A DNA stretch of 64,000 nt, from the NCBI GenBank assembly GCA_016215405.1, contig JACRJQ010000007.1, positions 150,298-214,297 of the forward strand, written 5' to 3'. Positions 25,026-49,261 of the stretch are shown here, one piece after another. How positions within the stretch are numbered: the stretch's first letter is position 1; the number at the start of each line of letters is the position of its first letter. The translations under genes were made by a program, and so were the position numbers. The stretch is from Candidatus Tayloriibacteriota bacterium (GTDB taxonomy: Bacteria > Patescibacteriota > Minisyncoccia > Phycocordibacterales > UBA6065). The notes under the pieces were generated by a model that saw only the letters and a program-made list of their open reading frames with translations, ran no database searches and was not told where the DNA came from.

Positions 25026-25098
25026 GTGTCCCCACGTGGAATCGAACCACGATCTCAGGCTCCGGAGGCCCGCACTCTATCCGTTGAGCTATGAGGAC
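25026..25098 (-). tRNA. tRNA-Arg (anticodon CCG)
   Basis: Cloverleaf: acceptor GTCCTCA/TGGGGAC, anticodon loop CUCCGGA, T-arm CGTGG-TTCGATT-CCACG. Confidence 0.85.
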
Positions 25099-25139
25099 GC
25101 TGCTTCATTTTAAACCTCTTTCCTGATATTCTCACTGCA

Positions 25140-25215
25140 CCCCTTGTAGTTCAATGGATCAGAACACCGGACTTCTAAGCCGGCTATGCAGGTTCGATTC
25201 CTGCCGAGGGGACCA
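25140..25215 (+). tRNA. tRNA-Arg (anticodon UCU), CCA encoded
   Basis: Acceptor CCCCTTG/CGAGGGG, D-arm GTTC...GAAC, anticodon loop CUUCUAA, T-arm GCAGG-TTCGATT-CCTGC, ACCA 3' end. Confidence 0.85.
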
Positions 25216-25260
25216 TATGAGAAAACCGCCGTACGGCGGTTTTCTCATATGGTCCCCTCG
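25205..25260. repeat. perfect 27-bp-arm palindrome that includes the tRNA-Arg(UCU) 3' acceptor/CCA end
   Basis: cgaggggaccatatgagaaaaccgccg-ta-cggcggttttctcatatggtcccctcg. Confidence 0.85.
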
Positions 25261-25303
25261 AAACGCCTCACGACGACCGACATATCTTTCGGACGCGCCT
25301 CCT

Positions 25304-25347
25304 CAGCGAAGCAGAAAGGCCCCTTGCGGGGCCTTTCTGCTTCGCTG
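25304..25347 (+). terminator. strong hairpin (20-bp perfect stem, ttgc loop)
   Basis: cagcgaagcagaaaggcccc-ttgc-ggggcctttctgcttcgctg; no clean U-tract, so it may be a structural or processing element rather than a classic terminator. Confidence 0.5.
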
Positions 25348-25587
25348 AGCTTCTTCTGACAAACTCGCTGCCGGAGTTCTGCGGCCCCGGCTCGCCCTAC
25401 GGGCTCATCGAACCAAAACGGCAAATGATACCTGCGCAACGAACCTTCTTAGCCTGAGAGGCCGCCCGTACCGCCTCCTCGGCTAAAGTCGAGAACGAAT
25501 ACCGATCTGCTTCCGTTTCTCCAGCGGACGACCGCTCCGCCTGACCCTATCGATACTACTCCCGAGACGGCGATTTCTTTCAGGGAC

Positions 25588-26085
25588 CTATCTCTCTATG
25601 GCCGCGCCGAGAGCGGTGCCAGCAAGTATGGCCAGCCCTCCGATGACGGCCGTCGTCATCCCCTTCCTCAGAGGCGATGTCGACGAGAGGCGCGCGTTCG
25701 CCACGCCGAGGACGAAGAGCGCTGAAAGAGAGACCGCGATCGACACGGGAAGCGCGAGAGAGCTCGCAAACAGGACGTATGGCAAGAGCACCACGAGGCC
25801 CGATACGAAATACGAGAAGAACATGACGATGGCCGACGCCACGGACCTGCGCAGAGGCAGAGATTTCCTCTCTTCGAATTCTTTAGCGCTATTCTCCGAC
25901 AAAAGGCCGCCCGCGCTCATAGAGAGCGCTTCGACGAATATAAGGATGATCCCCGTGAGGAGGATGGTCGGACGAGGCACCCCAGCGACGGCGATGCCCG
26001 ATATGAGGCCCACGGTCGAGACAAGGCTGTCTTCGACGCCGAAAGTGAAGCTTCGGACCGAATCTGAATTGATAAAGGTTTTCAT
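25588..26085 (-). CDS. VIT1/CCC1-family (DUF125) membrane protein
   Basis: Five TM topology with ...VEDSLVSTVGLISGIAVAG... motif. Confidence 0.65.
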   Translation of the reverse strand: MKTFINSDSVRSFTFGVEDSLVSTVGLISGIAVAGVPRPTILLTGIILIFVEALSMSAGGLLSENSAKEFEERKSLPLRRSVASAIVMFFSYFVSGLVVLLPYVLFASSLALPVSIAVSLSALFVLGVANARLSSTSPLRKGMTTAVIGGLAILAGTALGAAIER

Positions 26086-26093
26086 GGCTCTTT

Positions 26094-26573
26094 CTAGAGA
26101 TTCGCGAGCCAGAGCACCGCGAGGAAGATGAACACTCCCATATAAAGGAGCCTGTATGTCGCGTAGAAGAACAGGCGCTTTCTCTTTTCCGAAGAGTCGA
26201 GCGACCAGATCTCGGGATAGACGCCCTCTTCGGCGAAAGCGCCCCGCTCATAAAGGCCGAGGATCTTCTCTATCCTTACGGCGACCTTGTGCTGATCCTG
26301 AAACGTCTTGTCGAGGTCTTTGATGTAATGCTCTTTGAGTACGTAGAGCGCGAGAAGGACGAGCGCCGTAGCCGCCGCTCTCATATCGACGCCCACGAGA
26401 GACTCTCTCTGGACTATCCAACCCGACGCGACGATAAGGACTCCGAGTCCCCAGATCGCGACGCTCTGAGCCCTCTCGCGGACCGTGTGCATGGCCTTAT
26501 ACCTCTCGTCGAGCGCCCGTAAGAGCACCTGGACCTTCTCTGCTTCAGACAGGGCGATATGCTGATCTTTCAT
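26094..26573 (-). CDS. hypothetical membrane protein
   Basis: 159 aa, three predicted TM segments, no motif recognised. Confidence 0.4.
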   Translation of the reverse strand: MKDQHIALSEAEKVQVLLRALDERYKAMHTVRERAQSVAIWGLGVLIVASGWIVQRESLVGVDMRAAATALVLLALYVLKEHYIKDLDKTFQDQHKVAVRIEKILGLYERGAFAEEGVYPEIWSLDSSEKRKRLFFYATYRLLYMGVFIFLAVLWLANL

Positions 26574-26607
26574 GCCTTAAGTATACCTCGGCCGACGAGG
26601 CGGAAAT

Positions 26608-26793
26608 TCACCTCCTCCCCTGTCGGGGCACCTTCGCGCCCGCCCGCCGCGCCTCAGAGAGGCCTATCGCGATCGCCTGCTTCCTGTTTTTGACCCTCTT
26701 CCCGCTCCGGCCCGACTTCAATCTGCCGCGCTTGTATTCATGGACGGCTTTCTTCACTTTCTCTTGAGCTTTCGGTCCGTATCTTCGGGGCAT
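26608..26793 (-). CDS. small basic conserved-looking protein (KQAIAIGLSEARRAG motif)
   Basis: 61 aa, Lys/Arg-rich; family not confidently recognised. Confidence 0.35.
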   Translation of the reverse strand: MPRRYGPKAQEKVKKAVHEYKRGRLKSGRSGKRVKNRKQAIAIGLSEARRAGAKVPRQGRR

Positions 26794-26833
26794 ACGAGAC
26801 TAGTACGATCGAGCGCCGCGAACGGTTCGAGGC

Positions 26834-27358
26834 CTATGACCTCCTCGATATCTCCTCTCTCACGGCTCGCCTCCGGCGCAGCCTCTGTATCCCCCACATC
26901 GCGTAGGCAAACGCGATGAGTGCGAGATTTGTGAAGAATATCGAGGGCGTCGCCCAGCTCACGCCGTCGAAGCGGTAGATCGAGAGGGGCCAGAGAAAGG
27001 GCGTCGGAAAGAATTCCGTCGAGTGCGTGAATATGTCGACGGCTATGTGGAGAGGCCAGGCGAGCATGGGCCAGAACGGCTTCCTGAAAACGGCCCATGC
27101 GAGGGCGAAGACGGTGGCGAACACGACGAGGCTATGGGTGAGGTCGTAGAGCGAGCTTACATAGCCGGGGATCGAAGAGAGCTCGGGCCTGCCGAATCCG
27201 CCGCGTTCGAAGAGATTCGCGACCGTGAATATGCCGAAAGAGAAGAGGTCTGGCGATATGCCGAAAAGGGCGCTCCACCAGAAAGCTCTCTTATTCTTCC
27301 TTCCGAACGCGACTCCGCCCCAAAGCCCGTGAGAGATGATGTCCACGACAGACAGCAT
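26834..27358 (-). CDS. membrane-bound metal-dependent hydrolase (YdjM/DUF457-like)
   Basis: HGLWGG N-terminus, multiple His in TM helices; 174 aa. Confidence 0.55.
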   Translation of the reverse strand: MLSVVDIISHGLWGGVAFGRKNKRAFWWSALFGISPDLFSFGIFTVANLFERGGFGRPELSSIPGYVSSLYDLTHSLVVFATVFALAWAVFRKPFWPMLAWPLHIAVDIFTHSTEFFPTPFLWPLSIYRFDGVSWATPSIFFTNLALIAFAYAMWGIQRLRRRRAVREEISRRS

Positions 27359-27672
27359 AGCACGACAAAGGCTCCGCCTTGCACCCTCTTTGTAGCGATT
27401 AGGTTAGGAGCGATAATCATGTCATAAAACAATACGACGTATCCTTTGTCAAAAAATTAACGTACTATGTAAGGGAGTAAAACTATAGTGAAAGGCCAGA
27501 TCGGGCGATCATCTCCGACGGACGTTTAAGGAAAAAACCAAAAACCTTCCAGTCGAAAGCGCCTCCTCCGCCCCAGGACTGCCTTCTTTCTCTAGCGCCT
27601 CAAGCGCTTGCGGATAAAATCAGTTGCGACTTTTACCTCTTAAAAGCTAGCAAATCGGCTAAGAATATCTAT

Positions 27673-28044
27673 ATGACAAAGATCACGCAATCGGTCGGGC
27701 TTTCGGCGGGCTCATTCTTCAGGGCGCTCTTCCTCGCTCTCATCTTTATAGCGGCCCCTGCAGCGCATGCGGATACCAACATCCTCGCCGGCAACGACCT
27801 TACTGTCGGAGCTACAGGGCAAGGAGTGGTCGTCCTGCAAGGACTGCTCTCGGAGATGGGGTACTTGAATATCCCGTCGAGCGTCCCGATGGGCTACTTC
27901 GGATCGCTCACTAAGAGCGCGCTCGCTCGATACCAGACGTCTGAAAGCGTAAGCCCTGCCGTAGGCTACTTCGGGCCTGTGACCAAGATCAGGATGCATC
28001 AGCAGTTCGCGTCCCATAACTGGCTTACCATGATGGGTTGGTAG
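27673..28044 (+). CDS. secreted peptidoglycan-binding domain (PG_binding_1) protein
   Basis: Signal peptide; LQGLLSEMGYL...GYFGSLTKSALARYQ motif. Confidence 0.7.
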   Translation: MTKITQSVGLSAGSFFRALFLALIFIAAPAAHADTNILAGNDLTVGATGQGVVVLQGLLSEMGYLNIPSSVPMGYFGSLTKSALARYQTSESVSPAVGYFGPVTKIRMHQQFASHNWLTMMGW

Positions 28045-28065
28045 CCTAAGAACAGATGGAGCAAA

Positions 28066-28090
28066 TAAACCAGAGAAACCGCCGCGAGGG
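28066..28090 (+). terminator. rho-independent terminator
   Basis: aaaccgcc-gcga-gggcggtttttt. Confidence 0.7.
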
Positions 28091-28185
28091 CGGTTTTTTG
28101 CTTGCCTCACTGACGCACAAAGCACGGACACCAGTACAAAAAAGCCCGCCGCGTCGTGCGGGGGCTTCGGAAACCTGACGGATCG

Positions 28186-28965
28186 TTACCTCGTCCTCTG
28201 CAGGACGTAGGGGTGCTCCATATCGTGGTGCAGATAATGCGGCCCGCAATTGCATGGCCGTTTGCCGCACCGATAATGCGGCCCCGAATACTTCTCGGAA
28301 AGGACCGTATCGAGATCGACCTCGAGCATTCCCGAGATCACCAAGATCCACGAGAACACGTCGGCGAGCTCGTGCGAGACGCTTTTGCGCATGGCTTCGA
28401 GTTTCATACCGTGCCGGTGGATGTCGAGGAGCTGGGCGCTCGACGTCTCGCCGATCTCCTCATACAGGCGACCGATGACGAATTGCATCCCGTTCTTCCG
28501 GTTGCCTTCGCCATAGACCGCCATCAGATTCGCGGCCCAGTCGTTTGCAGACCAGGCGAGCTGAATGGGGTCGGGAGGGGCGAGGACGATGTCTTTCCTC
28601 TTTTCGATGTGGCAGGCGCAGACGGGCTCTCCGCAATACGCACAGCGGCCCGGCGGGAACTTCTCCCGCATCGCATCGACGACGGGAAGGTCCCTGAATT
28701 CGTCGGCGACGGCGCACGTCCAGCTGAAGAGGCTCGCGAGAGAGCTTTCGAGATTGGGCTTAGAGGACTTCTTGCGCACATGCTTCGCGAAGATCCTAGC
28801 CGCTTCGAGGAGGAAGAAAAGGCGCTGGCCCTTGAGATACATAGCGTTGCGCTGGCCAAAGAGCCCGCGCAGATCGTCAATCTGGCTTTGGAGGTTCATG
28901 GTAGGTTTTGGGTTCTGCGACCACCCTACTCCAACACCACGAGGAAGTAAATCGAAGAGGATCAC
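28186..28965 (-). CDS. MazG-like nucleotide pyrophosphohydrolase domain protein with Cys-rich inserts
   Basis: ELADVFSWILVISGMLEVDLDTVLSEKY resembles the MazG EExxD/E helix; CxxC...CxC and CxxxxCxC clusters. The start may be the internal MNLQSQ. Confidence 0.45.
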   Translation of the reverse strand: MILFDLLPRGVGVGWSQNPKPTMNLQSQIDDLRGLFGQRNAMYLKGQRLFFLLEAARIFAKHVRKKSSKPNLESSLASLFSWTCAVADEFRDLPVVDAMREKFPPGRCAYCGEPVCACHIEKRKDIVLAPPDPIQLAWSANDWAANLMAVYGEGNRKNGMQFVIGRLYEEIGETSSAQLLDIHRHGMKLEAMRKSVSHELADVFSWILVISGMLEVDLDTVLSEKYSGPHYRCGKRPCNCGPHYLHHDMEHPYVLQRTR

Positions 28966-28971
28966 ATAAGA

Positions 28972-28992
28972 AAACCGCCTTTCGGCGGCTTC
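28972..28992 (-). terminator. candidate terminator downstream of the SIR2 gene
   Basis: On the minus strand gccgcc-gaaa-ggcggt followed by TTTCTT; weak. Confidence 0.4.
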
Positions 28993-29086
28993 TCATTTTG
29001 GGTGCCGTCGTGGCGGGAATTAGAAATAGAATGAGGTTTGAAAATCCAGCCATTCCCTCTCTTAAATGAAATAATTGAACCTCGTC

Positions 29087-30064
29087 TCAAGAGAGACTCT
29101 TTTTTATTTCTTTTAAAATTGTAGTTTCATTTTGATCGGGCGGAAATATCTGTCGAAGAGAATAAGGGAAATAACCTTTAACACCATTCCATATTCCTGC
29201 GTATTTACTCACTTCCCATGAACCGAAATGAGAAGGTTTTCCCTCGAGTTTATTTTTGACAATCTCAGGATCTGTCGGATTCACAATGTAAATACTGAGA
29301 CCGTATTCTTGCACACCCTTTAGCAGAATGTCGTTTATATGCGCGTCACCAAATCCATACCCAATCACAAGTAATTTCTTATTCTTTTCAAAGATCTGAC
29401 CCATAAATATTTCCATGTACCATTTCAACAATGGCTCCTGAGAAATGTTTTCGGATTTGTTCTTACCAATCACCATCTGATTACCTCCATTGGAGGAGGC
29501 CCAAGCATAGGACCCGTGTAATTTTATATAACTCGAATTATTTAAGTCTTTTTTTGCAGGCTCAGCCTCCTTGGGGAGGATGGCTTTTTTGGCATTTCCT
29601 TTAATTCCATAATCAAACACCTGTGCAACACCAGGAGAGCGATAGTCGTGCTGTCTCTCCATAAGTAAGTCTTGATTCAGAGTGAAAAACCAACCGCTCT
29701 CTGATCCCCTTTGGGATAAAAAACTCAACAAATCACCAAGCCCATAGATATTTAGAGCAAGAGGATTCTCCAAATTAAATGTCCAGCCTTTTATCGAGTC
29801 ATCAAGGTCTTTATATGCATCCTCCACGGCAACTCGCACCGCTTCTTTTGCCTCGGGTGTGTAGCGTCCTCCTGTAAGGACTATTGAATACACCGACTCA
29901 AAATCAAAGTCCTTCAATAACAAATCGCGCACATCAGGAATTGCCTGTAAGAGGGGGTTATTGAAAATTTTTGACCACATTTCACGCGCAAGAAAACCAC
30001 CAAAATTATGTGTGAAGCCGGCACCTGTTAGCAAAAGAACATTTCTCTGCATAGATTTAGTCAT
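29087..30064 (-). CDS. SIR2-like (SIR2_2 / DUF4020-type, ThsA-like NADase) domain protein
   Basis: LLLTGAGFT (cf. ThsA FAGAGLS), KLHGS (cf. KMHGD), VIGYGFGDAHINDIL (cf. VGFSFTDPNLDYIL). Start ATG 30062-30064 overlaps the upstream gene's stop (ATGACTAA). Confidence 0.8.
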   Translation of the reverse strand: MTKSMQRNVLLLTGAGFTHNFGGFLAREMWSKIFNNPLLQAIPDVRDLLLKDFDFESVYSIVLTGGRYTPEAKEAVRVAVEDAYKDLDDSIKGWTFNLENPLALNIYGLGDLLSFLSQRGSESGWFFTLNQDLLMERQHDYRSPGVAQVFDYGIKGNAKKAILPKEAEPAKKDLNNSSYIKLHGSYAWASSNGGNQMVIGKNKSENISQEPLLKWYMEIFMGQIFEKNKKLLVIGYGFGDAHINDILLKGVQEYGLSIYIVNPTDPEIVKNKLEGKPSHFGSWEVSKYAGIWNGVKGYFPYSLRQIFPPDQNETTILKEIKKSLS

Positions 30065-31505
30065 CGTAATCGCGCCAATTCTGCTTATCGTATTTTCCCC
30101 TTTCAACATATTCTACAAGCGTGTCGTAGAAAAAACGCGCATGGGCAGAACGATCACCTTCATTCAAATACCAGCCATTCTGCGTTCTTTTAATCTTATA
30201 GGTTAACCAATCAGAATTCTCGTTAGTCCCTTTCGGAATTAATCTCTTCAACATCGAATTTGAATATTCCGAGAAAAGCCACTGCCCCTTGTCATCAGAT
30301 GAGGAGGCGTTTGCCCTCACTGATCTAAGCACCTTTAGAAAAGTCTCTTTATTTCCATAAAGAGCGATTAATAACTTAATAGCAATATCTATACATTGGT
30401 TCCTACCATCCATGAAACTGTCCCTAATAAGGGCGCCCTTTTGTACCTCAACAAACTTATGTTGTATTGGTTTATACAGCTGGCGAAGGCTCACGTGACC
30501 CAAATCAAATGCCTTAAGTAACACCTCCTCCAAAAGATGTTTGGTTATTCCACTTCTACCCAGCGCATCTTTGAGATTTGGCTCATCATATTTTATTTTC
30601 TGGATGAGATCAGGTATTTTTTCAATAACTGCCTTTTTGTTATCGAACTCAAAGGGTTTAACGGTGAAGAATTTGTCGAAATAACCACCAAACTCGGTTG
30701 ACTCACCGTATCTGTGATGAAATATGCTCTCTACGTTCTTAATGTCAGCCACAATTATTATGTGATCGAAACCAAATTTGTTGTCTTCCTCACCTTCCAT
30801 CTGGGCTGATAACACGTTCAGTATGCGGAATATATGCTCGGGATCGATTCTGTCGAAGTCGTCCAATATCAAAACGCTTCTCTTTCCCGCTTTGTTGTTT
30901 TTTATCTTCTCGATCAGCAAGTGACTAAGATGATCGGTTGCAATCGAATCGTCAGACAATTCGATCTCCTTTATGAATTTATCAATAACGCCCTTATCAC
31001 CAGCTTGAAATTCTCTTTTAAACTCTTGGAATTTCCTGTCGAACACGAGCAAGTCTTTTATAGGCCGACCTAGTTTGCTCAATGCCTGTACTAATGGGTC
31101 TGGAGACAGGGAGAGCGCCGCTTCAGTGGTGCCAACGATTGATTGAAGCGTTGAGTTTATTGACCCTCTTTCTTTGCAAAAAGAGAGAAATAGCCTAGTA
31201 GAATCTTTTATGCCCTTGGAAACATTACCCTGAAAACACTCAGGGTCCTTTTTAAGCAGTTCTACTAAAATATCGTATTTTAGTAGATTAATTATATTTT
31301 CATTTGATGAAATCTGATATCTGACTGGATACAGATGATAGACATCATATTTTTCTTTAAAACCATCAAAGAAAGTCTGTAGGAAAAAAGTCTTTCCACA
31401 CCCAAATTTGCCAGAGAAAAAAATACGCCTGTTTTTCTCTTCAGATAAAAAAGCTTCAAATTTACTCTTTGGTCCGTCTATTGAAATAAGGTTTTCTTGT
31501 TCCAT
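30057..31505 (-). CDS. KAP-family P-loop NTPase
   Basis: Walker A FSGKFGCGKT and KAP-type Walker B VLILDDFDRIDPEHIFRILNVL. Start placed at MEQENLIS (ATG 31503-31505) because the upstream ORF extension overlaps a tRNA-like structure. Confidence 0.78.
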   Translation of the reverse strand: MEQENLISIDGPKSKFEAFLSEEKNRRIFFSGKFGCGKTFFLQTFFDGFKEKYDVYHLYPVRYQISSNENIINLLKYDILVELLKKDPECFQGNVSKGIKDSTRLFLSFCKERGSINSTLQSIVGTTEAALSLSPDPLVQALSKLGRPIKDLLVFDRKFQEFKREFQAGDKGVIDKFIKEIELSDDSIATDHLSHLLIEKIKNNKAGKRSVLILDDFDRIDPEHIFRILNVLSAQMEGEEDNKFGFDHIIIVADIKNVESIFHHRYGESTEFGGYFDKFFTVKPFEFDNKKAVIEKIPDLIQKIKYDEPNLKDALGRSGITKHLLEEVLLKAFDLGHVSLRQLYKPIQHKFVEVQKGALIRDSFMDGRNQCIDIAIKLLIALYGNKETFLKVLRSVRANASSSDDKGQWLFSEYSNSMLKRLIPKGTNENSDWLTYKIKRTQNGWYLNEGDRSAHARFFYDTLVEYVERGKYDKQNWRDYDD

Positions 31506-31511
31506 ATTTGC

Positions 31512-31609
31512 TGCGAGAATGGGGATCGAACCCATATTTTTTCCTTTCAAGATATTCAACAATGTGAGTACCTTGAAAGGGAAATGTGCTACCGTTACAC
31601 CATCTCGCA
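31512..31609 (-). tRNA. tRNA-like element: tRNA-Glu(UUC)-like cloverleaf with a 28-nt insertion after the anticodon loop (possible intron-containing or degenerate tRNA)
   Basis: Manual fold: acceptor TGCGAGA/TCTCGCA, D-arm GTGT-AACGGTA-GCAC, anticodon arm TTTCC-CTTTCAA-[28 nt]-GGAAA, T-arm ATGGG-TTCGATC-CCCAT. No CCA. Confidence 0.4.
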
Positions 31610-31625
31610 ATATCACTTTGATATC

Positions 31626-32156
31626 TCAGGTCATCAAAGCGATGAGCTTCTCAAGGTCCACAATTTTTTTCTTTTGCGAATCGACGAGTGTTTTCGGAAA
31701 TACTTTCTCATATTCAGTAGGGTCGTTGCGGCGTTTATGGTCGATGTATTTTGATTCGAATTCCGACTTGCACCATGCTGATGTTTTGTCTGAATAAGAC
31801 TTCCCGTCATTAAGTATTGAGAGAAGCACTGCCTCCAAGCAGGGTGTAATCTCAATAAGCTCAATGCCTCTTTCTTTTGCTTGCTTTCGAGCTCGCCTAA
31901 TTTCCTCTTCGCCCTTATCGTTATCAAGGACAACGACCTTGCGATCAAAGGCCCCTGGAATCTTGTCCGCATCCATAACCACATTCTCTGGTGCGCCCCC
32001 TTTGCCTTTTCGGATAGTAACGGCAACCCCAGTATCCCTCGAATAAATAGATTTGAGATATTTAAGGAATACCTCTTCGCACATCCCCTCCCCAAAAACC
32101 AAAAGCATCCTACTTGCGACACGTCGTTTATGCTTTTGTGGATTTGAGCGAGACAT
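31626..32156 (-). CDS. RloB-like / DUF4276-like Toprim-type small protein (partner of an AAA_21 ATPase)
   Basis: N-terminal MLLVFGEGMCEEVF (E-G-x-x-E) and VVVLDNDKGEEE (DxD) in Toprim-like spacing; 176 aa; 9 nt downstream of the ATPase gene. Confidence 0.5.
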   Translation of the reverse strand: MSRSNPQKHKRRVASRMLLVFGEGMCEEVFLKYLKSIYSRDTGVAVTIRKGKGGAPENVVMDADKIPGAFDRKVVVLDNDKGEEEIRRARKQAKERGIELIEITPCLEAVLLSILNDGKSYSDKTSAWCKSEFESKYIDHKRRNDPTEYEKVFPKTLVDSQKKKIVDLEKLIALMT

Positions 32157-32164
32157 GAACGACT

Positions 32165-33370
32165 TTAGATCTTAGGCACGGCGCCATAAGCACCTGCAAG
32201 GTACTTGGTGTAGTAATTGTCATCTGCTCGAACGCCCTCCATCTCGTCGAGCCGCCAAGATTCGCTCATGCCCTTTGAGTTTTTCTCAATCAGAATGATC
32301 TGATATTTATCAAGCTTACTCAATATCTGATGACTATGTGTACTGAATAGAAGCTGAGCGTTCTTCGGATTTAGCTCTGGTTCGATGAACATATCGAAGA
32401 GCGCCAACATCATGTCAGGATGTAAGCTGACGTCGAATTCATCCAATACCGCAATACCTCCTTTTTCGAGGGCAACAAGAATGTGTTTAAGAAGCACGAA
32501 GAGCTGTTTGGTGCCCGAGGACTCTTGATCAAAAGGTAGATTAACCTTCTCGTCTCCAAATGAATGTGAGACGGAAACATTCATGAGAAAATCGTTTGGA
32601 TTTTTTGATTTTTCTATTTCGAAGGCATTAAGGCCCAGATCAAATCGAGACAGCATTTTTTCGGCCGCTTTCTTGAGTTTGTCGTTTTCACTATAAAACT
32701 TGAAAGCCATAGCCTGTTGTATTGTGTTGTGAATACCGTGACCGCCAACCCAACCCACAGGTCCGACGTTTGTCTCGAGTTTCTGCCAATAATTTGCTAT
32801 ATCCTGGCTTTCTTTGTGATTGAGTCGTATCGCGACCGCAACTACACTCGCATTTGAGCGGAGTAGTGTCTCGGATCCCTTTGGGAGGTCAAAGTTTGCA
32901 TCATCAAGTTCATAGGAGTTAATACCTTCGTTCCAAGATCGAGAAAACATCTTTTTATTCGATTTCTTCTCGTTAGCCATACTTACCAGGCGAAGGTCCT
33001 CAGACGTAATCTTATTTTTGTTCAGTGTGAAGCTGTAAGTATAAACACCCCTTTCTATCTCAAACACTACTGATATCTCTGTGGGCAAGCTCTTGTGTTC
33101 ATTCAAGGCAAAGCAATTTATCGGCAAGGCCTGCTGAGGATTCATTTCAAATGAATCAACGATAAGCCACTTTAAAAATGGAATTACTTTTAGAAGATTT
33201 GTTTTACCCGAGGCATTGGGTCCTATGATCGTTTCGACTTTTGAGAGCCGTGTCCCAAGAGGGGTAGTAAAGTAAGAGTTATTCTTAGGCGCATTATCGT
33301 TCACAACAAAACTCAGAGTGTTTTCCTCACCCAAAGAATAGAAATTCTTGCAAGAAATTGAATGTATCAT
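32165..33370 (-). CDS. AAA_21-type ABC ATPase (RloA/AbiLi/OLD-ATPase-like)
   Basis: Walker A GPNASGKTNLL, Walker B/D-loop IAVLDEFDVSLHP, H-loop FSTHS. Confidence 0.8.
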   Translation of the reverse strand: MIHSISCKNFYSLGEENTLSFVVNDNAPKNNSYFTTPLGTRLSKVETIIGPNASGKTNLLKVIPFLKWLIVDSFEMNPQQALPINCFALNEHKSLPTEISVVFEIERGVYTYSFTLNKNKITSEDLRLVSMANEKKSNKKMFSRSWNEGINSYELDDANFDLPKGSETLLRSNASVVAVAIRLNHKESQDIANYWQKLETNVGPVGWVGGHGIHNTIQQAMAFKFYSENDKLKKAAEKMLSRFDLGLNAFEIEKSKNPNDFLMNVSVSHSFGDEKVNLPFDQESSGTKQLFVLLKHILVALEKGGIAVLDEFDVSLHPDMMLALFDMFIEPELNPKNAQLLFSTHSHQILSKLDKYQIILIEKNSKGMSESWRLDEMEGVRADDNYYTKYLAGAYGAVPKI

Positions 33371-33596
33371 GTTTTTATTGTGGCCTTTGCTTAATCGGTA
33401 CTATACCTCTATATACGAATATTGCAAGCTTTTATACATAAAATTGTATAAAACGACACAAAAATAGTTAATTGAATACGGCTTAAGAAAGTAGGGCTTT
33501 ATTAAGCCACCAGATAAGGGTCATTTGAGAGGGTGCGCCAGAATTATAAAAGCCAAGAGAGTACTCGTGAAAACTCTTGGAAGGGTGTAATTGATT

Positions 33597-33945
33597 TGTA
33601 GAAACTAATCAACCGCTCGCGCAAGAATTATCTCCCTCGGAAGATCGACACGCCAAGTTCGTTGAGCTTACCCAGAAGACGTTCGAGTTCGCCGCCTATG
33701 CTCACAAGGCTTTTATCGCTCCAAACGCCGATTCAATGCTTAAAAGGGAGATATTCCTCGCACTCGGTAAGAACCATTCGATAACGGGCCAAATACTTCG
33801 AATAGAGCCGTATGAATGGCTCGAACCTATAAAGTCCTGCTACCCAGCCTTGAAAGCTGAATATGACGCGTTGGAACTCAATATACCCGACAGTTTGGCG
33901 CGAGCAGAGGCATTAGCTCAAATTCGTACCACTTGGGGTGGCTAG
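33597..33945 (+). pseudogene. open frame without ATG start until 33736 (possible 3' remnant of a gene disrupted at the island boundary, or small gene with non-canonical start)
   Basis: Reading frame open from the TGA at ~33594 to the stop at 33945 (≈115 codons); only the Met-initiated part (33736..33945) appears in the ORF track. Confidence 0.25.
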
Positions 33946-34084
33946 AGAGATCACGGATACGTTTATCAATTCTTACAGAATCTGTACACCTTTCCCAATT
34001 CTTCGGATGGAAATCCTCAGAATTATGGGAGAAGGTTTTCGATTCTCTCACGCGAGCCGCCCCGGGCTCGCTTAGCCATCCACT

Positions 34085-34108
34085 CAAAAACCCGCTCGCG
34101 CGGGTTTT
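34085..34108. terminator. bidirectional terminator hairpin downstream of tRNA-His
   Basis: aaaaacccgc-tcgc-gcgggtttttt. Confidence 0.6.
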
Positions 34109-34114
34109 TTCGTG

Positions 34115-34186
34115 GGTGGCTAGAGAGAATCGAACTCTCGATATCGGTTCCACAAACCGAAGTTTTACCACTAAACTATAGCCACC
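34115..34186 (-). tRNA. tRNA-His (anticodon GUG) with the extra 5' G-1
   Basis: GGTGGCTA...anticodon loop UUGUGGA...GAGTTCGATTCTCTCTAGCCACC. Confidence 0.85.
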
Positions 34187-34349
34187 ATATTTACCGAGTC
34201 AGCCGAATCTTTATAGCAGATTTAGCCTGAAAAATCGAGGATTCGGAAGAAGAGAGGCCTTGAGTGTAAGAATTTATGAAGACTTTCCCTCGACTCGAAT
34301 TTCGGCAGCGCGCACAAATGAAAAGAGGCCTTGCGGCCCTTTTCATTTG

Positions 34350-34433
34350 TGCGCGGGAGAGGACTTGAACCTCCATGCCTGTGAAGGCGCTACCACCTCA
34401 AGGTAGTGCGTCTGCCAATTTCGCCACCCGCGC
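34350..34433 (-). tRNA. tRNA-Leu (anticodon GAG), long variable arm
   Basis: GCGCGGGTGGCGAAATTGGCAGACGC...CUACC-UUGAGGU-GGUAG...long variable arm...GGTTCAAGTCCTCTCCCGCGCA. Confidence 0.85.
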
Positions 34434-34517: not shown

Positions 34518-34949
34518 TTATTTCGCTGCGACAGGGGCTTCTGCGGCCTCCTCCTTCTTCGGCGACTTCACCACATCGGTGTTGCCTCCCTTTACGGATC
34601 GGAGATTTCGCATCTGGCGGCGGATCTCCTTTGCTGCCTTCTCGCGGACGAAGTAGAGCTTCGAGCGGCGGACCTTCGAGCGGCGAATGATCTCGATCTC
34701 GTCTATCGTCGGGGAGTAGAGCGGGAATATCCTCTCTACGCCGATGCCGTCGACCGACTTTCGGACGGTAAACGTAGCGCCGGCCTCGTCGCCGTGCTTC
34801 CTCGAAAGGATGAGTCCCTCGAACGCCTGGAGTCGGGTCTTATCGCCTTCCTTGATCTTCTGCCATACGCGGACGGTGTCGCCGGAACGGAGCTCGAGCT
34901 TTCGGCGAGCTTCCATGTCTATAGGCGATGTGACTACTTTGCTTTCCAT
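34518..34949 (-). CDS. rplS: 50S ribosomal protein L19 with Lys-rich C-terminal tail
   Basis: [32 protein letters not shown]...TFTVRK L19 signature. Confidence 0.9.
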
Positions 34950-35070: not shown

Positions 35071-35143
35071 GCGCCCTTAGCTCAGTTGGTAGAGCAGCTC
35101 ATTTACACTGAGAAGGTCGGGGGTTCAAGTCCCTCAGGGCGCA
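35071..35143 (+). tRNA. tRNA-Val (anticodon UAC)
   Basis: GCGCCCTTAGCTCAGTTGGTAGAGC...anticodon loop UUUACAC...GGGGGTTCAAGTCCCTCAGGGCGCA. Confidence 0.85.
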
Positions 35144-35152
35144 CAAATTTGA

Positions 35153-46827: not shown

Positions 46828-49107
46828 CTACGGACACCCGCTTACATAGCCGCAACTCTGATCCCAGTCGACGCATTCGTATGAGCAATTGCACTCGTAC
46901 CATTCGTAACCGTCGCTACACCAGCTGCAGACCTCATCGGAATTCACGCAATACGGTTCCCCGCACACATATCGGTCCGCCACGTTCGCCGGAGCCGAGA
47001 CCGAGCATGTGCCGGCGCAATTACGGGTTCCGCTATTCGTCTGGCCGCAATTGTTCGCAGACGAAGTGCAGGACTGGCCGTAATAAGACGGATCAGAAGC
47101 CGTGCACGAGCCGTATGCGTTCGTCGTCCCATAGATGCAACCGCCTGGAGAGGACCAACAATAGTAAGGCGCCTGCACGGCCGAGCCGTCGCCATTGACG
47201 CACCCTGTGCAGCCGTATGTTCCATAATTGCAGCCTGCGCCATTGCAGACCGAGCAGGACTGACCGTAATTCGAAGGGCTCTGCGCTGAACAATTGCCAT
47301 ATCCGTCGGTTAGACCGAAGGAGCACGCGCCTGGAGAAGACCAGCAGGTATAGGGCGCCTGCACGGCCGAGCCGTTAGGATTGACGCATGATCCGCCACA
47401 GTTATATGTTCCGTAATTGCATCCCATGCCGGTACACGCCGAGCACGACTGGTTATAGTTCGCTGCGCAGCATGACTGGGTATTGCAGGCCTGAGAGCTC
47501 GCCGGCGGCAGCATCATCGTGCAGATTCCCCCTTCTTCGTACACCCCATCGTCCCGAAGGCAGCGCACCGTCCTCGTCTGAGTGCCGCCTCCGCAGGAAG
47601 CCGAGCAAGACGACCAGCCGCCCAGCTCCCAAGAATAGGAGTGTGCGACCCAGCATGAGCCGTTCGAATAGGGCGTAGATCCCCATGAACCGTTATAGCA
47701 GGTAGACGTCCTCGATACGGACGAGCAGCTCGACGGCCAATAGACATAGCTCGATGAATACGTCGTGCACGACCCCCCGTCAGACACGGTCCCGCAAGCG
47801 CTCGAATAGCACGAGCAGCCTTGGGTATTGCAGCTCTGGCTCGTCGAAGGCTTCCCTCCTCCGCAGTAGGAGTCGGATACGGATATTCCGTCGCTGCGCT
47901 CGCACCACACGCCCCTCGATTGGCTGCCTCCTCCGCAGGACGCCGAACATGATCCCCAGCCGTCGTAATTCCAATAGTAGTCATAGCCGACCGAGCACGA
48001 ACCGTTCGGATAGGGCGATGCGCTCCAAGAGCCGTTACTGCAAGTCGAGGTGCGGGAAACAGACGAACACGACGAAGGATAGCTGACAGAGCTCGAAGAA
48101 TACGAGGTGCAGGAAGCGCCGTTCGACGCGGCGGAGCATGCGCCGGAGGCGCTGCAGCCGCTTGAGCAGCTGCCATAAGCGTACGGAGAGGCGCTCCACG
48201 TGCCGTCGCTACAGGTGGAGGTGCGTGCAACCATAGAACATGAGGCTCCCGACGGAGCGGTCGAAGAATAGGTCGTGCAGGATCCTCCATGCGCGGTCGT
48301 ACCGCAGCCGCCCGAAGCGGAGCAGGACCTGTAGCTCTGAGAGCAAGAGCTGTAGGCCCCCGGCGTCACGGTCCATGCCCCGTTCGAGCACGTAGACGAG
48401 ATAGACGCGCCCGAGCAGGTGGCAGGAGACGTCGCCGAGCTCGCGGTGTAGCTCGTGCAGGAAGCGCCGTTCGACGCGGCGGAACATGCGCCGGAGGCGC
48501 TGCAGCCGCTCGTACAACTGCTGTATACATATGGCGACGCGCTCCATGTACCATCGCTACAGGTAGAGACCCGAGAGACCGTGGAGCACGATGCGCCCGA
48601 AGGGGAATTCGAAGAGTATGTGGTGCAGCTTCCGCCATGAGCCGTCGTGCCGCAGCCGCCCGAGGGCGCGCATGAGCGATAGCCCTGCGAACAAGAGCCG
48701 TAAGCGGCGGGAGTGACGGACCATGCCCCTCCTACGCACGTCGCCGTCACTGATATCGCCGCGCACGTGGTGGGAGACGTTGCCGAGCTCGCGGTGTAGC
48801 TCGTGCATGTGCTTCCCAAGGCAGCGGCGGCGCACCCCCCTGACGCAGCGCACCCGCAGGGAGATTTCGTCACTCCTGTAGGGAGGTGGTCATAGAAGGA
48901 GGCCCATTCTTCTGCCGTCTTCGTAGGGATAAATATCCTGCTCCCTGTATCGTTTGTTATGACATAGCATGTCCCGATCTCGTTCACCGAGATAGCCGAA
49001 CCTGCATTTAGAGAGTACGACGTCGCCGCGTCGGATGCCGTAGCAACTGCAAAAAGAGAGAGGCATAGCGCCAGGCCTTTCGCGATCGCGGCTATTTTAG
49101 TTGGCAT
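46828..49107 (-). CDS. large Cys-rich secreted repeat protein with thrombospondin-type-1-like (TSP1) repeats
   Basis: Signal peptide (MPTKIAAIAKGLALCLSLFAVATA); two or more ~45-aa Cys modules (GGCGTTAHGGSCTTYSS...); two TSP1-like units WGSCSASCGGGSQSRGVWC and WSSCSASCGGGTQTRTVRC; nucleotide-level tandem repeats. The ORF extends to 49188. Confidence 0.6.
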   Translation of the reverse strand: MPTKIAAIAKGLALCLSLFAVATASDAATSYSLNAGSAISVNEIGTCYVITNDTGSRIFIPTKTAEEWASFYDHLPTGVTKSPCGCAASGGCAAAALGSTCTSYTASSATSPTTCAAISVTATCVGGAWSVTPAAYGSCSQGYRSCAPSGGCGTTAHGGSCTTYSSNSPSGASCSTVSRVSTCSDGTWSASPYVYSSCTSGCSASGACSAASNGASCTSYTASSATSPATCSGASISSTCSNGAWTVTPGAYSSCSQSYRSCSASGGCGTTAHGGSCTTYSSTAPSGASCSMVARTSTCSDGTWSASPYAYGSCSSGCSASGACSAASNGASCTSYSSSSVSYPSSCSSVSRTSTCSNGSWSASPYPNGSCSVGYDYYWNYDGWGSCSASCGGGSQSRGVWCERSDGISVSDSYCGGGKPSTSQSCNTQGCSCYSSACGTVSDGGSCTTYSSSYVYWPSSCSSVSRTSTCYNGSWGSTPYSNGSCWVAHSYSWELGGWSSCSASCGGGTQTRTVRCLRDDGVYEEGGICTMMLPPASSQACNTQSCCAANYNQSCSACTGMGCNYGTYNCGGSCVNPNGSAVQAPYTCWSSPGACSFGLTDGYGNCSAQSPSNYGQSCSVCNGAGCNYGTYGCTGCVNGDGSAVQAPYYCWSSPGGCIYGTTNAYGSCTASDPSYYGQSCTSSANNCGQTNSGTRNCAGTCSVSAPANVADRYVCGEPYCVNSDEVCSWCSDGYEWYECNCSYECVDWDQSCGYVSGCP

Positions 49108-49261
49108 CTGTTTTCCGTTATCTACGCTTGCTGCCTTGATAATCCCCAACCTCAGCTCTGAAGGGATCCAGAGCTTGCGACAAGGCACGAGCCCTCACAA
49201 TGAACATTATATACCAATAGTTTCGAAAAATTGAAACTATCGGCGGACAGCCGGCCGAAGG

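Follow-up and report, generated by a model that had tools for sequence, protein, structure and literature searches.

The AbiL system of Lactococcus lactis is grouped with the ABC-ATPase plus Toprim defence systems PARIS, Old, and Gabija, and its AbiLii/RloB component is regarded as a toxic Toprim-like effector (PMC11464382, PMC10440598). Two characterised relatives of AbiL, namely AriB of PARIS and P2 Old, cut tRNAs in the anticodon arm, and tRNAs in which this arm is altered neutralise PARIS and P2 Old (PMC11464382, PMC12445682). The stretch of DNA analysed here (the window; 64,000 nucleotides of contig JACRJQ010000007.1) comes from a metagenome-assembled genome (MAG) of Candidatus Taylorbacteria, which belongs to the Patescibacteria (candidate phyla radiation, CPR). 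On the 3' side of its tRNA-His gene, this window contains an island that is likely a recently acquired defence islet of about 4.5–5 kb, with AbiL, a tRNA-Glu-derived gene, a KAP-like NTPase, and a SIR2 gene in one co-directional array. Patescibacteria have tiny genomes and were for a long time considered poor in phage defence; to our knowledge, defence islands have rarely been described in these bacteria. As a small defence islet next to a tRNA gene, the locus is of an ordinary type, found in a host group that is unusual, and would represent a compact AbiL, KAP-like NTPase, and SIR2 array that recently passed between CPR bacteria and came to rest at a tRNA gene.

Four open reading frames (ORFs) on the minus strand pass the Pfam thresholds for SIR2_2, KAP_NTPase, RloB, and AAA_21. 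All four family assignments made for these genes in an earlier note on this DNA therefore hold. However, the gene list in that note was incomplete, as a fifth gene resembling tRNA-Glu(UUC) separates the two modules at 31511–31609. None of the four ORFs is truncated compared with its family, and all retain their catalytic motifs. In 400-nt windows, the GC content is 0.33–0.47 across 29000–33600, 0.54–0.62 in the left flank (0.57–0.61 up to about 28.9 kb), 0.47–0.51 at 33.6–34.4 kb, and a host-like 0.50–0.61 beyond 34400. The 1-kb windows in 29001–34000 have GC contents of 0.40–0.44, compared with 0.53–0.63 for all others in the 64 kb. Similarly, the four island genes have a GC content at third codon positions (GC3) of 0.42, compared with 0.73 for 12 host genes. 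The fall from about 60% to about 40% GC that had been described for this segment is thus borne out by sliding-window GC and GC3, and the tetranucleotide check proposed along with it also finds 29–34 kb deviating from the rest of the window (z = 8.2–10.5 in 2-kb windows). Because the composition is unameliorated and all genes are intact, these patterns point to a recent rather than an old acquisition. The earlier description of the island as "old or degraded" fits neither the GC and GC3 values nor the full-length ORFs with intact motifs.

The nearest homologues of the KAP and SIR2 proteins have at most 64% and 69% sequence identity, respectively, and are mostly from Patescibacteria, which suggests a CPR affinity of the cargo. 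The donor in this horizontal gene transfer was probably another Patescibacterium, one of low GC. No 90%-identity cluster mates of KAP or SIR2 were found on other contigs, and exact-match look-ups of the KAP protein (HZA81_03350 in the NCBI annotation, on a contig of 214 kb), the protein of the left flank, and rplS returned no other contig. For a MAG in which the left GC step is abrupt, starting at about 29020, it must be considered that DNA from a low-GC organism was joined to a high-GC contig during assembly or binning. Against such an artefact, the Logan contig L097 (9147 bp; run SRR12113407) is 100% identical to window positions 25231–34377 and covers both junctions, including the left host genes and the tRNA-His gene at the right. 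Although this contig was produced by an independent assembler, it probably derives from the same reads as the source assembly. Taken together, an assembly or binning artefact is extremely improbable.

Judged by homology and gene order, the AAA_21 and RloB genes are a genuine AbiL pair (AbiLi/AbiLii) that is conserved across three phyla. AbiLi (32165–33370, minus strand) is an ABC-type AAA_21 ATPase of 401 aa, with matches to Pfam AAA_21 (96.9 bits, 3e-27), to the PADLOC AbiLi model (PDLC02335; 2.1e-73 over residues 1–401), and to PHROG 5836 (1.5e-74). Its Walker A and Walker B motifs are GPNASGKT and IAVLDE, respectively. AbiLii (31626–32156, minus strand) starts 8 nt past the AbiLi stop on the same strand and encodes a putative RloB/Toprim-related nuclease effector of 176 aa, which matches Pfam RloB (35.3 bits; cutoff 31.5) and the PADLOC AbiLii model (1.1e-10). 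The sequence of this protein also shows an acidic E...DxD-like pattern (FGEG, LDND). Homologues of AbiLi are present in 170 plasmid records, and in all three plasmid loci compared (Sphingobium, Vibrio, and Clostridium) an RloB gene is located directly 3' of the AbiLi homologue. No AbiLi relatives were found in viral contigs with single-sequence patterns. The PADLOC matches and the same gene order in the three plasmid loci indicate a conserved two-gene system. In having an AAA_21 ATPase gene followed by a small RloB/Toprim-related gene, the island pair resembles L. lactis AbiL and the wider group of PARIS (AriA/AriB), P2 Old, and Gabija (GajA). However, the island AbiLi is only about 28–30% identical to its plasmid homologues, the host is a CPR bacterium, and a tRNA-like gene follows AbiLii here but not in the three other AbiL loci examined.

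The biochemical activities and triggers of AbiL, KAP, and SIR2 are those that we infer. By analogy with PARIS and P2 Old, the AbiLi ATPase would hold AbiLii or act as a sensor, and phage attack would lead it to license this small nuclease. The licensed AbiLii would then cut nucleic acid, plausibly tRNA anticodon arms, such that translation stops. Since AriB and P2 Old both cut tRNA anticodon arms, a tRNA-directed abortive mechanism may reasonably, and at most, be supposed for the island AbiL. Once activated, SIR2 may deplete NAD+, as in SIR2-HerA and DSR. In order, the array would consist of AbiLi-AbiLii, a tRNA-Glu(UUC)-derived gene with its anticodon sequestered by a 28-nt insert, a soluble KAP-like NTPase, and finally a SIR2 NADase that would be translationally coupled to KAP.

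The KAP-like P-loop NTPase (30057–31505, minus strand; 482 aa) matches Pfam KAP_NTPase (PF07693) with 33.8 bits (cutoff 20). Its start agrees with the NCBI annotation and coincides with an M1 that is invariant across 26 homologues, and its Walker A and Walker B motifs are GKFGCGKT and VLILDD, respectively. Many but not all KAP members have transmembrane segments inserted in the NTPase domain. The island protein has no transmembrane-like segment (maximum 19-residue Kyte-Doolittle mean of 0.99) and by this measure is a soluble KAP-like form; it also has no recognisable nuclease domain. More than 813 homologues were found, with more than 800 at full length, mostly in Patescibacteria and with distant ones in Bacteroidota. 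Among the related loci compared (numbered with the prefix L), several close homologues are located between hsdM and hsdS in the order hsdM-KAP-hsdS (L002 1449–5700, L005 3388–7432, L007 4512–8536, and L013 3024–7453). HsdS and HsdM are the commonest neighbours of KAP across 80 loci, and the top families among the 83 ORFs that immediately flank KAP homologues are Methylase_S (HsdS; 12), N6_Mtase (HsdM; 6), and ResIII (4). Other neighbours include ThsB_TIR with 8xMP, and two Mrr-type nucleases. These contexts indicate that the KAP-like family consists of restriction-linked, defence-island genes with neighbours that vary but almost always belong to defence families. Given the common placement with hsdM/hsdS, this family is a candidate accessory or independent defence gene.

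In this respect, the close homologues of the island KAP resemble the Rlo genes and the PrrC/RloC-type ORFs of type I restriction-modification (R-M) loci, and RloB was itself named from such restriction-linked loci (PMC10440598). However, the island has no R-M genes. In a separate observation, an array of ThsB_TIR, 8xMP (PF24838), and KAP is conserved in L081–L084, which are marine contigs (KAP homologue P0003; 62% identity), and adjoins a HinfI-type R-M system and a LexA-like repressor. This array may be a distinct TIR-KAP system. The best solved structures for the AlphaFold2 (AF2) model of the island KAP (pLDDT 79.8) are RADAR RdrA (E 4e-5) and BREX BrxC, both of which are defence ATPases that act with other components. 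In contrast to this likeness, the TM-scores are low (0.33–0.40) with about 10% sequence identity, RdrA has about 800–850 aa compared with 482 aa in the island KAP, and the island has neither an RdrB deaminase gene nor BREX genes.

The last gene encodes a stand-alone SIR2_2 NADase candidate (29087–30064, minus strand; 325 aa from M16), with a match to Pfam SIR2_2 (PF13289) of 36.8 bits (cutoff 24.5). The NCBI model of this gene has 340 aa and starts at 30109 (ORF 29087–30109). The protein matches 21 PADLOC SIR2 models and keeps T28-G-A-G, N145-Q-D, and H198-G-S, which are invariant in 20 family members, such that both the catalytic Asn and the catalytic His are present. Its family comprises about 1800 members, which are stand-alone proteins with a length of about 325 aa. 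The nearest structure to its AF2 model is the SIR2 of Escherichia coli SIR2-HerA (Nezha; E 1.4e-9, TM-score about 0.55), followed by DSR2. The island is like SIR2-HerA in that the SIR2 is nearest in both fold and sequence and in that a SIR2 NADase gene adjoins a P-loop NTPase gene. However, the adjacent NTPase is KAP-like and has no HerA match, no other ORF of the island could be HerA, the island SIR2 has about 325 aa compared with about 380–430 aa, and the pairing is not conserved in relatives. Compared with other SIR2 systems, the island differs from Thoeris in having no TIR (ThsB) or SLOG gene, and from SIR2-pAgo (SPARSA) in having no pAgo gene; the island SIR2 also consists of the SIR2 domain only (325–340 aa), whereas DSR carries a fused sensor region of more than 600 aa.

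The KAP and SIR2 genes share 8 nt, from the SIR2 ATG to the KAP stop (ATGACTAA). Searches with family hidden Markov models (HMMs) found a SIR2 of the island's family within ±6 kb of KAP homologues in none of 88 loci, and tblastn agreed; conversely, a KAP gene was found at the HMM level within ±5 kb of SIR2 relatives in none of five loci, which are the entire SIR2 context sample. Because neither set of loci holds both genes, KAP and SIR2 are, on these comparisons, not a conserved pair. The earlier note had proposed two gene pairs in this island; AAA_21 with RloB stands as AbiL, which is kept in plasmid loci, whereas KAP with SIR2 does not (0/88 and 0/5 loci). The partners of SIR2 relatives in other CPR islets also differ, including a 262-aa unknown protein, DUF4238, a PycTM/DUF2726 cluster, and an overlapping 1207-aa protein. 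Two of these islets are near large serine recombinases and one is directly after tRNA-Phe and tRNA-Arg. On gene context, KAP and SIR2 are separately mobile gene families of defence islands that were joined here secondarily. An alternative is that the two form a genuine two-gene system in which KAP is an oligomerising sensor/switch and SIR2 the NADase effector, either by a swap of KAP for HerA on the SIR2-HerA plan, or by a swap of SIR2 for the deaminase on the RADAR plan. The 8-nt overlap suggests translational coupling, the SIR2 fold is closest to a HerA-partnered SIR2, the best fold match of KAP, RdrA, works with a separate enzymatic effector, and small SIR2-only proteins are usually partnered, with variable adjacent genes among the relatives of the island SIR2. 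Nevertheless, no co-occurrence was found in the 88 KAP loci or the five SIR2 contexts, and the nearest relatives of KAP are instead found within operons of type I R-M systems. A genuine KAP and SIR2 system is therefore possible but a tentative proposition, and secondary joining is the explanation preferred here. As a side observation, the closest SIR2 homologue (69%) is located directly 3' of tRNA-Phe and tRNA-Arg(CCT) in L092 (4411–10987), and is followed by the 262-aa unknown protein, an HTH and M78 peptidase pair, and a large serine recombinase. The L092 islet is an intact example of the type of tRNA-adjacent CPR islet from which the island may have arisen.

The tRNA-Glu(UUC)-like gene (31511–31609, minus strand) is the most unusual item of the island and an unexplained singleton. 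It takes up the 120 nt between AbiLii and KAP almost entirely, apart from 16 nt before and 5 nt after, and matches the Rfam tRNA model with 55.6 bits (E 1.5e-11). Default ARAGORN misses this gene, whereas the intron mode reports it as tRNA-Glu(ttc) i(37,28). The minimum free energy structure is a complete cloverleaf (-35.4 kcal/mol, z = -4.3). Its acceptor and anticodon stems have 7 bp and 5 bp, respectively, its D arm contains GG, its T arm has a canonical UUCGAUC loop, and the discriminator base is G. The gene also has U11-A24, U13-G22, and a 4-nt variable loop, all of which are glutamyl-tRNA synthetase (GluRS) identity features in E. coli tRNA-Glu. These features agree with an origin from a real tRNA-Glu. 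The insert of 28 nt (31546–31573) is located at position 37/38 and forms a pairing of about 15 bp with the anticodon, by which the anticodon arm becomes a hairpin of about 20 bp.

The insert is placed at the canonical 37/38 site of archaeal and eukaryal tRNA introns, and its pairing with the anticodon resembles that in their pre-tRNAs. However, it fits none of the known intron types compared. A bulge-helix-bulge (BHB) motif has two 3-nt bulges that contain the splice sites and a 4-bp helix between them, whereas in the predicted fold of the island gene both junctions are in a continuous helix of 12–15 bp with a single 1-nt bulge. A BHB intron is thus rejected. A group I intron, as found in bacteria including Patescibacteria, is likewise rejected, as the insert of 28 nt is too short for a ribozyme core, which takes at least about 200 nt, and no Rfam match besides tRNA was found at E ≤ 0.5. 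In a survey of 4,934 bacterial genomes, group I introns were found at every anticodon-loop position except 37/38 (PMC13011429). As a positive control, ARAGORN in intron mode recovered a tRNA-Asn(GTT) with a 213-nt intron at 35/36 in L096 (364–650), which is of the Patescibacteria group I type (PMC13011429). The same mode found no similar element in about 1 Mb of KAP, SIR2, and AbiL loci. Similarly, no such element was found in IMG/VR with a structure-aware pattern and two exact 21–22-mers, and a scan of JGI metagenomes returned three matches, all of which were chance hits to non-tRNA sequences. The insert has no further copy within the window. A 20-nt match (90%) of its 3' part to the end of the KAP gene (30099–30118) has E = 0.35 and was dismissed as chance.

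The sober reading of these features is a tRNA-Glu gene that an insertion has probably inactivated and that arrived together with the island. The gene could still serve as an RNase P/Z processing site in a polycistronic RNA. Alternatively, the gene may be a working part of the island, as an anticodon-masked tRNA mimic, a tRNA with a new kind of short intron, or at least an RNase P/Z signal that divides the transcript of the array into two mRNAs. The complete cloverleaf with perfect stems and a canonical T loop, the tRNA-Glu identity features, the position of the insert exactly at 37/38 with its pairing to the anticodon, and the near-exact fit in the AbiLii-KAP gap would all agree with such a role, as would the cleavage of anticodon arms by PARIS and P2 Old and the neutralisation of both by altered tRNAs (PMC11464382, PMC12445682). 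However, the element is a singleton across the related loci, IMG/VR, and the JGI metagenomes; without BHB bulges and too short for group I, the insert has no known bacterial removal route (PMC13011429); and an intact-looking pseudogene is to be expected anyway in a recent island. A working role is thus unlikely. The more specific proposal that the insert-bearing tRNA-Glu is a functional RNA of the defence operon, either as an antidote, decoy, or bait mimic for the AbiL Toprim nuclease, or as the first short bacterial tRNA intron that is neither group I nor BHB, is very unlikely; it is kept alive because the gene sits right after the Toprim-nuclease pair. If functional, the gene would either tie immunity directed at tRNAs to a tRNA mimic encoded by the host, or represent a bacterial tRNA intron of a new type. 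The restriction linkage of the KAP family and the masked anticodon of this tRNA-Glu may prove more useful than the island itself.

At the right side of the island, the 3' end of tRNA-His(GTG) (34114–34185, minus strand) faces the island. An exact 15-nt direct repeat of this 3' end (GGGTGGCTAGAGAGA; 33936–33950, plus strand), which resembles an att scar, lies 178 nt from the other copy (34114–34128), such that the pair encloses 163 bp. This repeat has two copies in the window, and none of 100 shuffles gave two, even at two mismatches. Between the copies are 12 nt of the tRNA-His T arm in inverted orientation (TTCGATTCTCTC; 34038–34049, plus strand) and a terminator-like hairpin (34086–34110). 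An open frame of about 115 codons (33590–33945, plus strand; intermediate GC of about 0.47), which besides the four ORFs is the only stretch that looks coding, lacks the start-proximal part and has its stop inside the 15-nt repeat. It has no match in Pfam or PHROGs and no homologue in a set of 5.8 billion proteins, and was thus rejected as a candidate integrase remnant, although it may be a remnant of some gene. The whole area of 33590–34128 looks like a multiply scarred integration site. The exact copy of the tRNA 3' end and the nearby T-arm fragment support past site-specific integration at tRNA-His.

At the left edge, a GC-rich hairpin with T runs on both strands (28975–28988) is located between a convergent host gene (28213–28950, plus strand) and the end of SIR2 at 29087. 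When tRNA-His, the repeat region, tRNA-Leu, tRNA-Val, and the tRNA-Glu-like gene were compared with 28900–29150, only chance-level local alignments were found, and a 12/15 match (AGAATGAGGTTTGAA) was rejected as an att site, as it was equalled by 789 of 2000 shuffles. As such a repeat is lacking on this side, att sites do not frame the island cleanly. The earlier idea of a tRNA integration hotspot is directly supported by the tRNA-His 3'-end duplicate and the inverted T-arm fragment at the right side. The absence of a visible integrase, as stated before, is in agreement with Pfam and PHROGs searches, which found no integrase or recombinase among the four island proteins and the open frame. The recombinase, on our reading, was either absent at arrival or lost by clean deletion. 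As in tRNA-gene-targeted genomic islands, the island adjoins the 3' side of a tRNA gene, the 3' end of which is duplicated; unlike those, it has no integrase, and its distal border lacks a repeat.

Several of these points weigh against the account of a recently acquired islet with independent modules in one operon. First, the mode of insertion has neither a recombinase nor a left-border repeat to support it. Second, the 15-nt repeat pair encloses a 163-bp segment and not the island. Third, the KAP/SIR2 overlap hints at functional coupling, and is left unexplained if the modules are independent. Finally, spacing and strand are the sole basis for the operon. The island genes are co-directional and tightly packed behind an AT-rich region, from which we infer one operon. 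This AT-rich region (33400–33471, minus strand) contains two sigma-70-like -35/-10 consensus matches upstream of the first gene, namely TTAACT-17-TACAAT and TTGCAA-16-TATAGT, at 33471–33443 and 33427–33400. It is probably the promoter of the minus-strand array. The earlier note had described promoter-like AT-rich DNA at 33380–33480; two matches are indeed located there, but such matches are not enriched over shuffles (13 vs. 10.9 ± 3.5).

Beyond tRNA-His, the right flank contains tRNA-Leu (34349–34433, minus strand), rplS (34518–34949, minus strand; recognised from its translation), and tRNA-Val (35071–35144, plus strand), and these coordinates agree with the tRNA-His/Leu/Val cluster and rplS reported before as lying just right of the island. 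Elsewhere in the window, two divergent tRNA-Arg genes (25026–25215), with anticodons CCG (minus strand) and TCT (plus strand), are 41 nt apart and about 4 kb left of the island. Finally, a gene at 46828–49188 (minus strand) encodes a Cys/Ser-rich repeat protein of 786 aa with a signal-like N terminus, in which the motifs WGSCSASCGGGSQSRGVWC and WSSCSASCGGGTQTRTVRC resemble thrombospondin type-1 repeats. This gene accounts for the one further tetranucleotide outlier of the window besides the island (z = 5.4).

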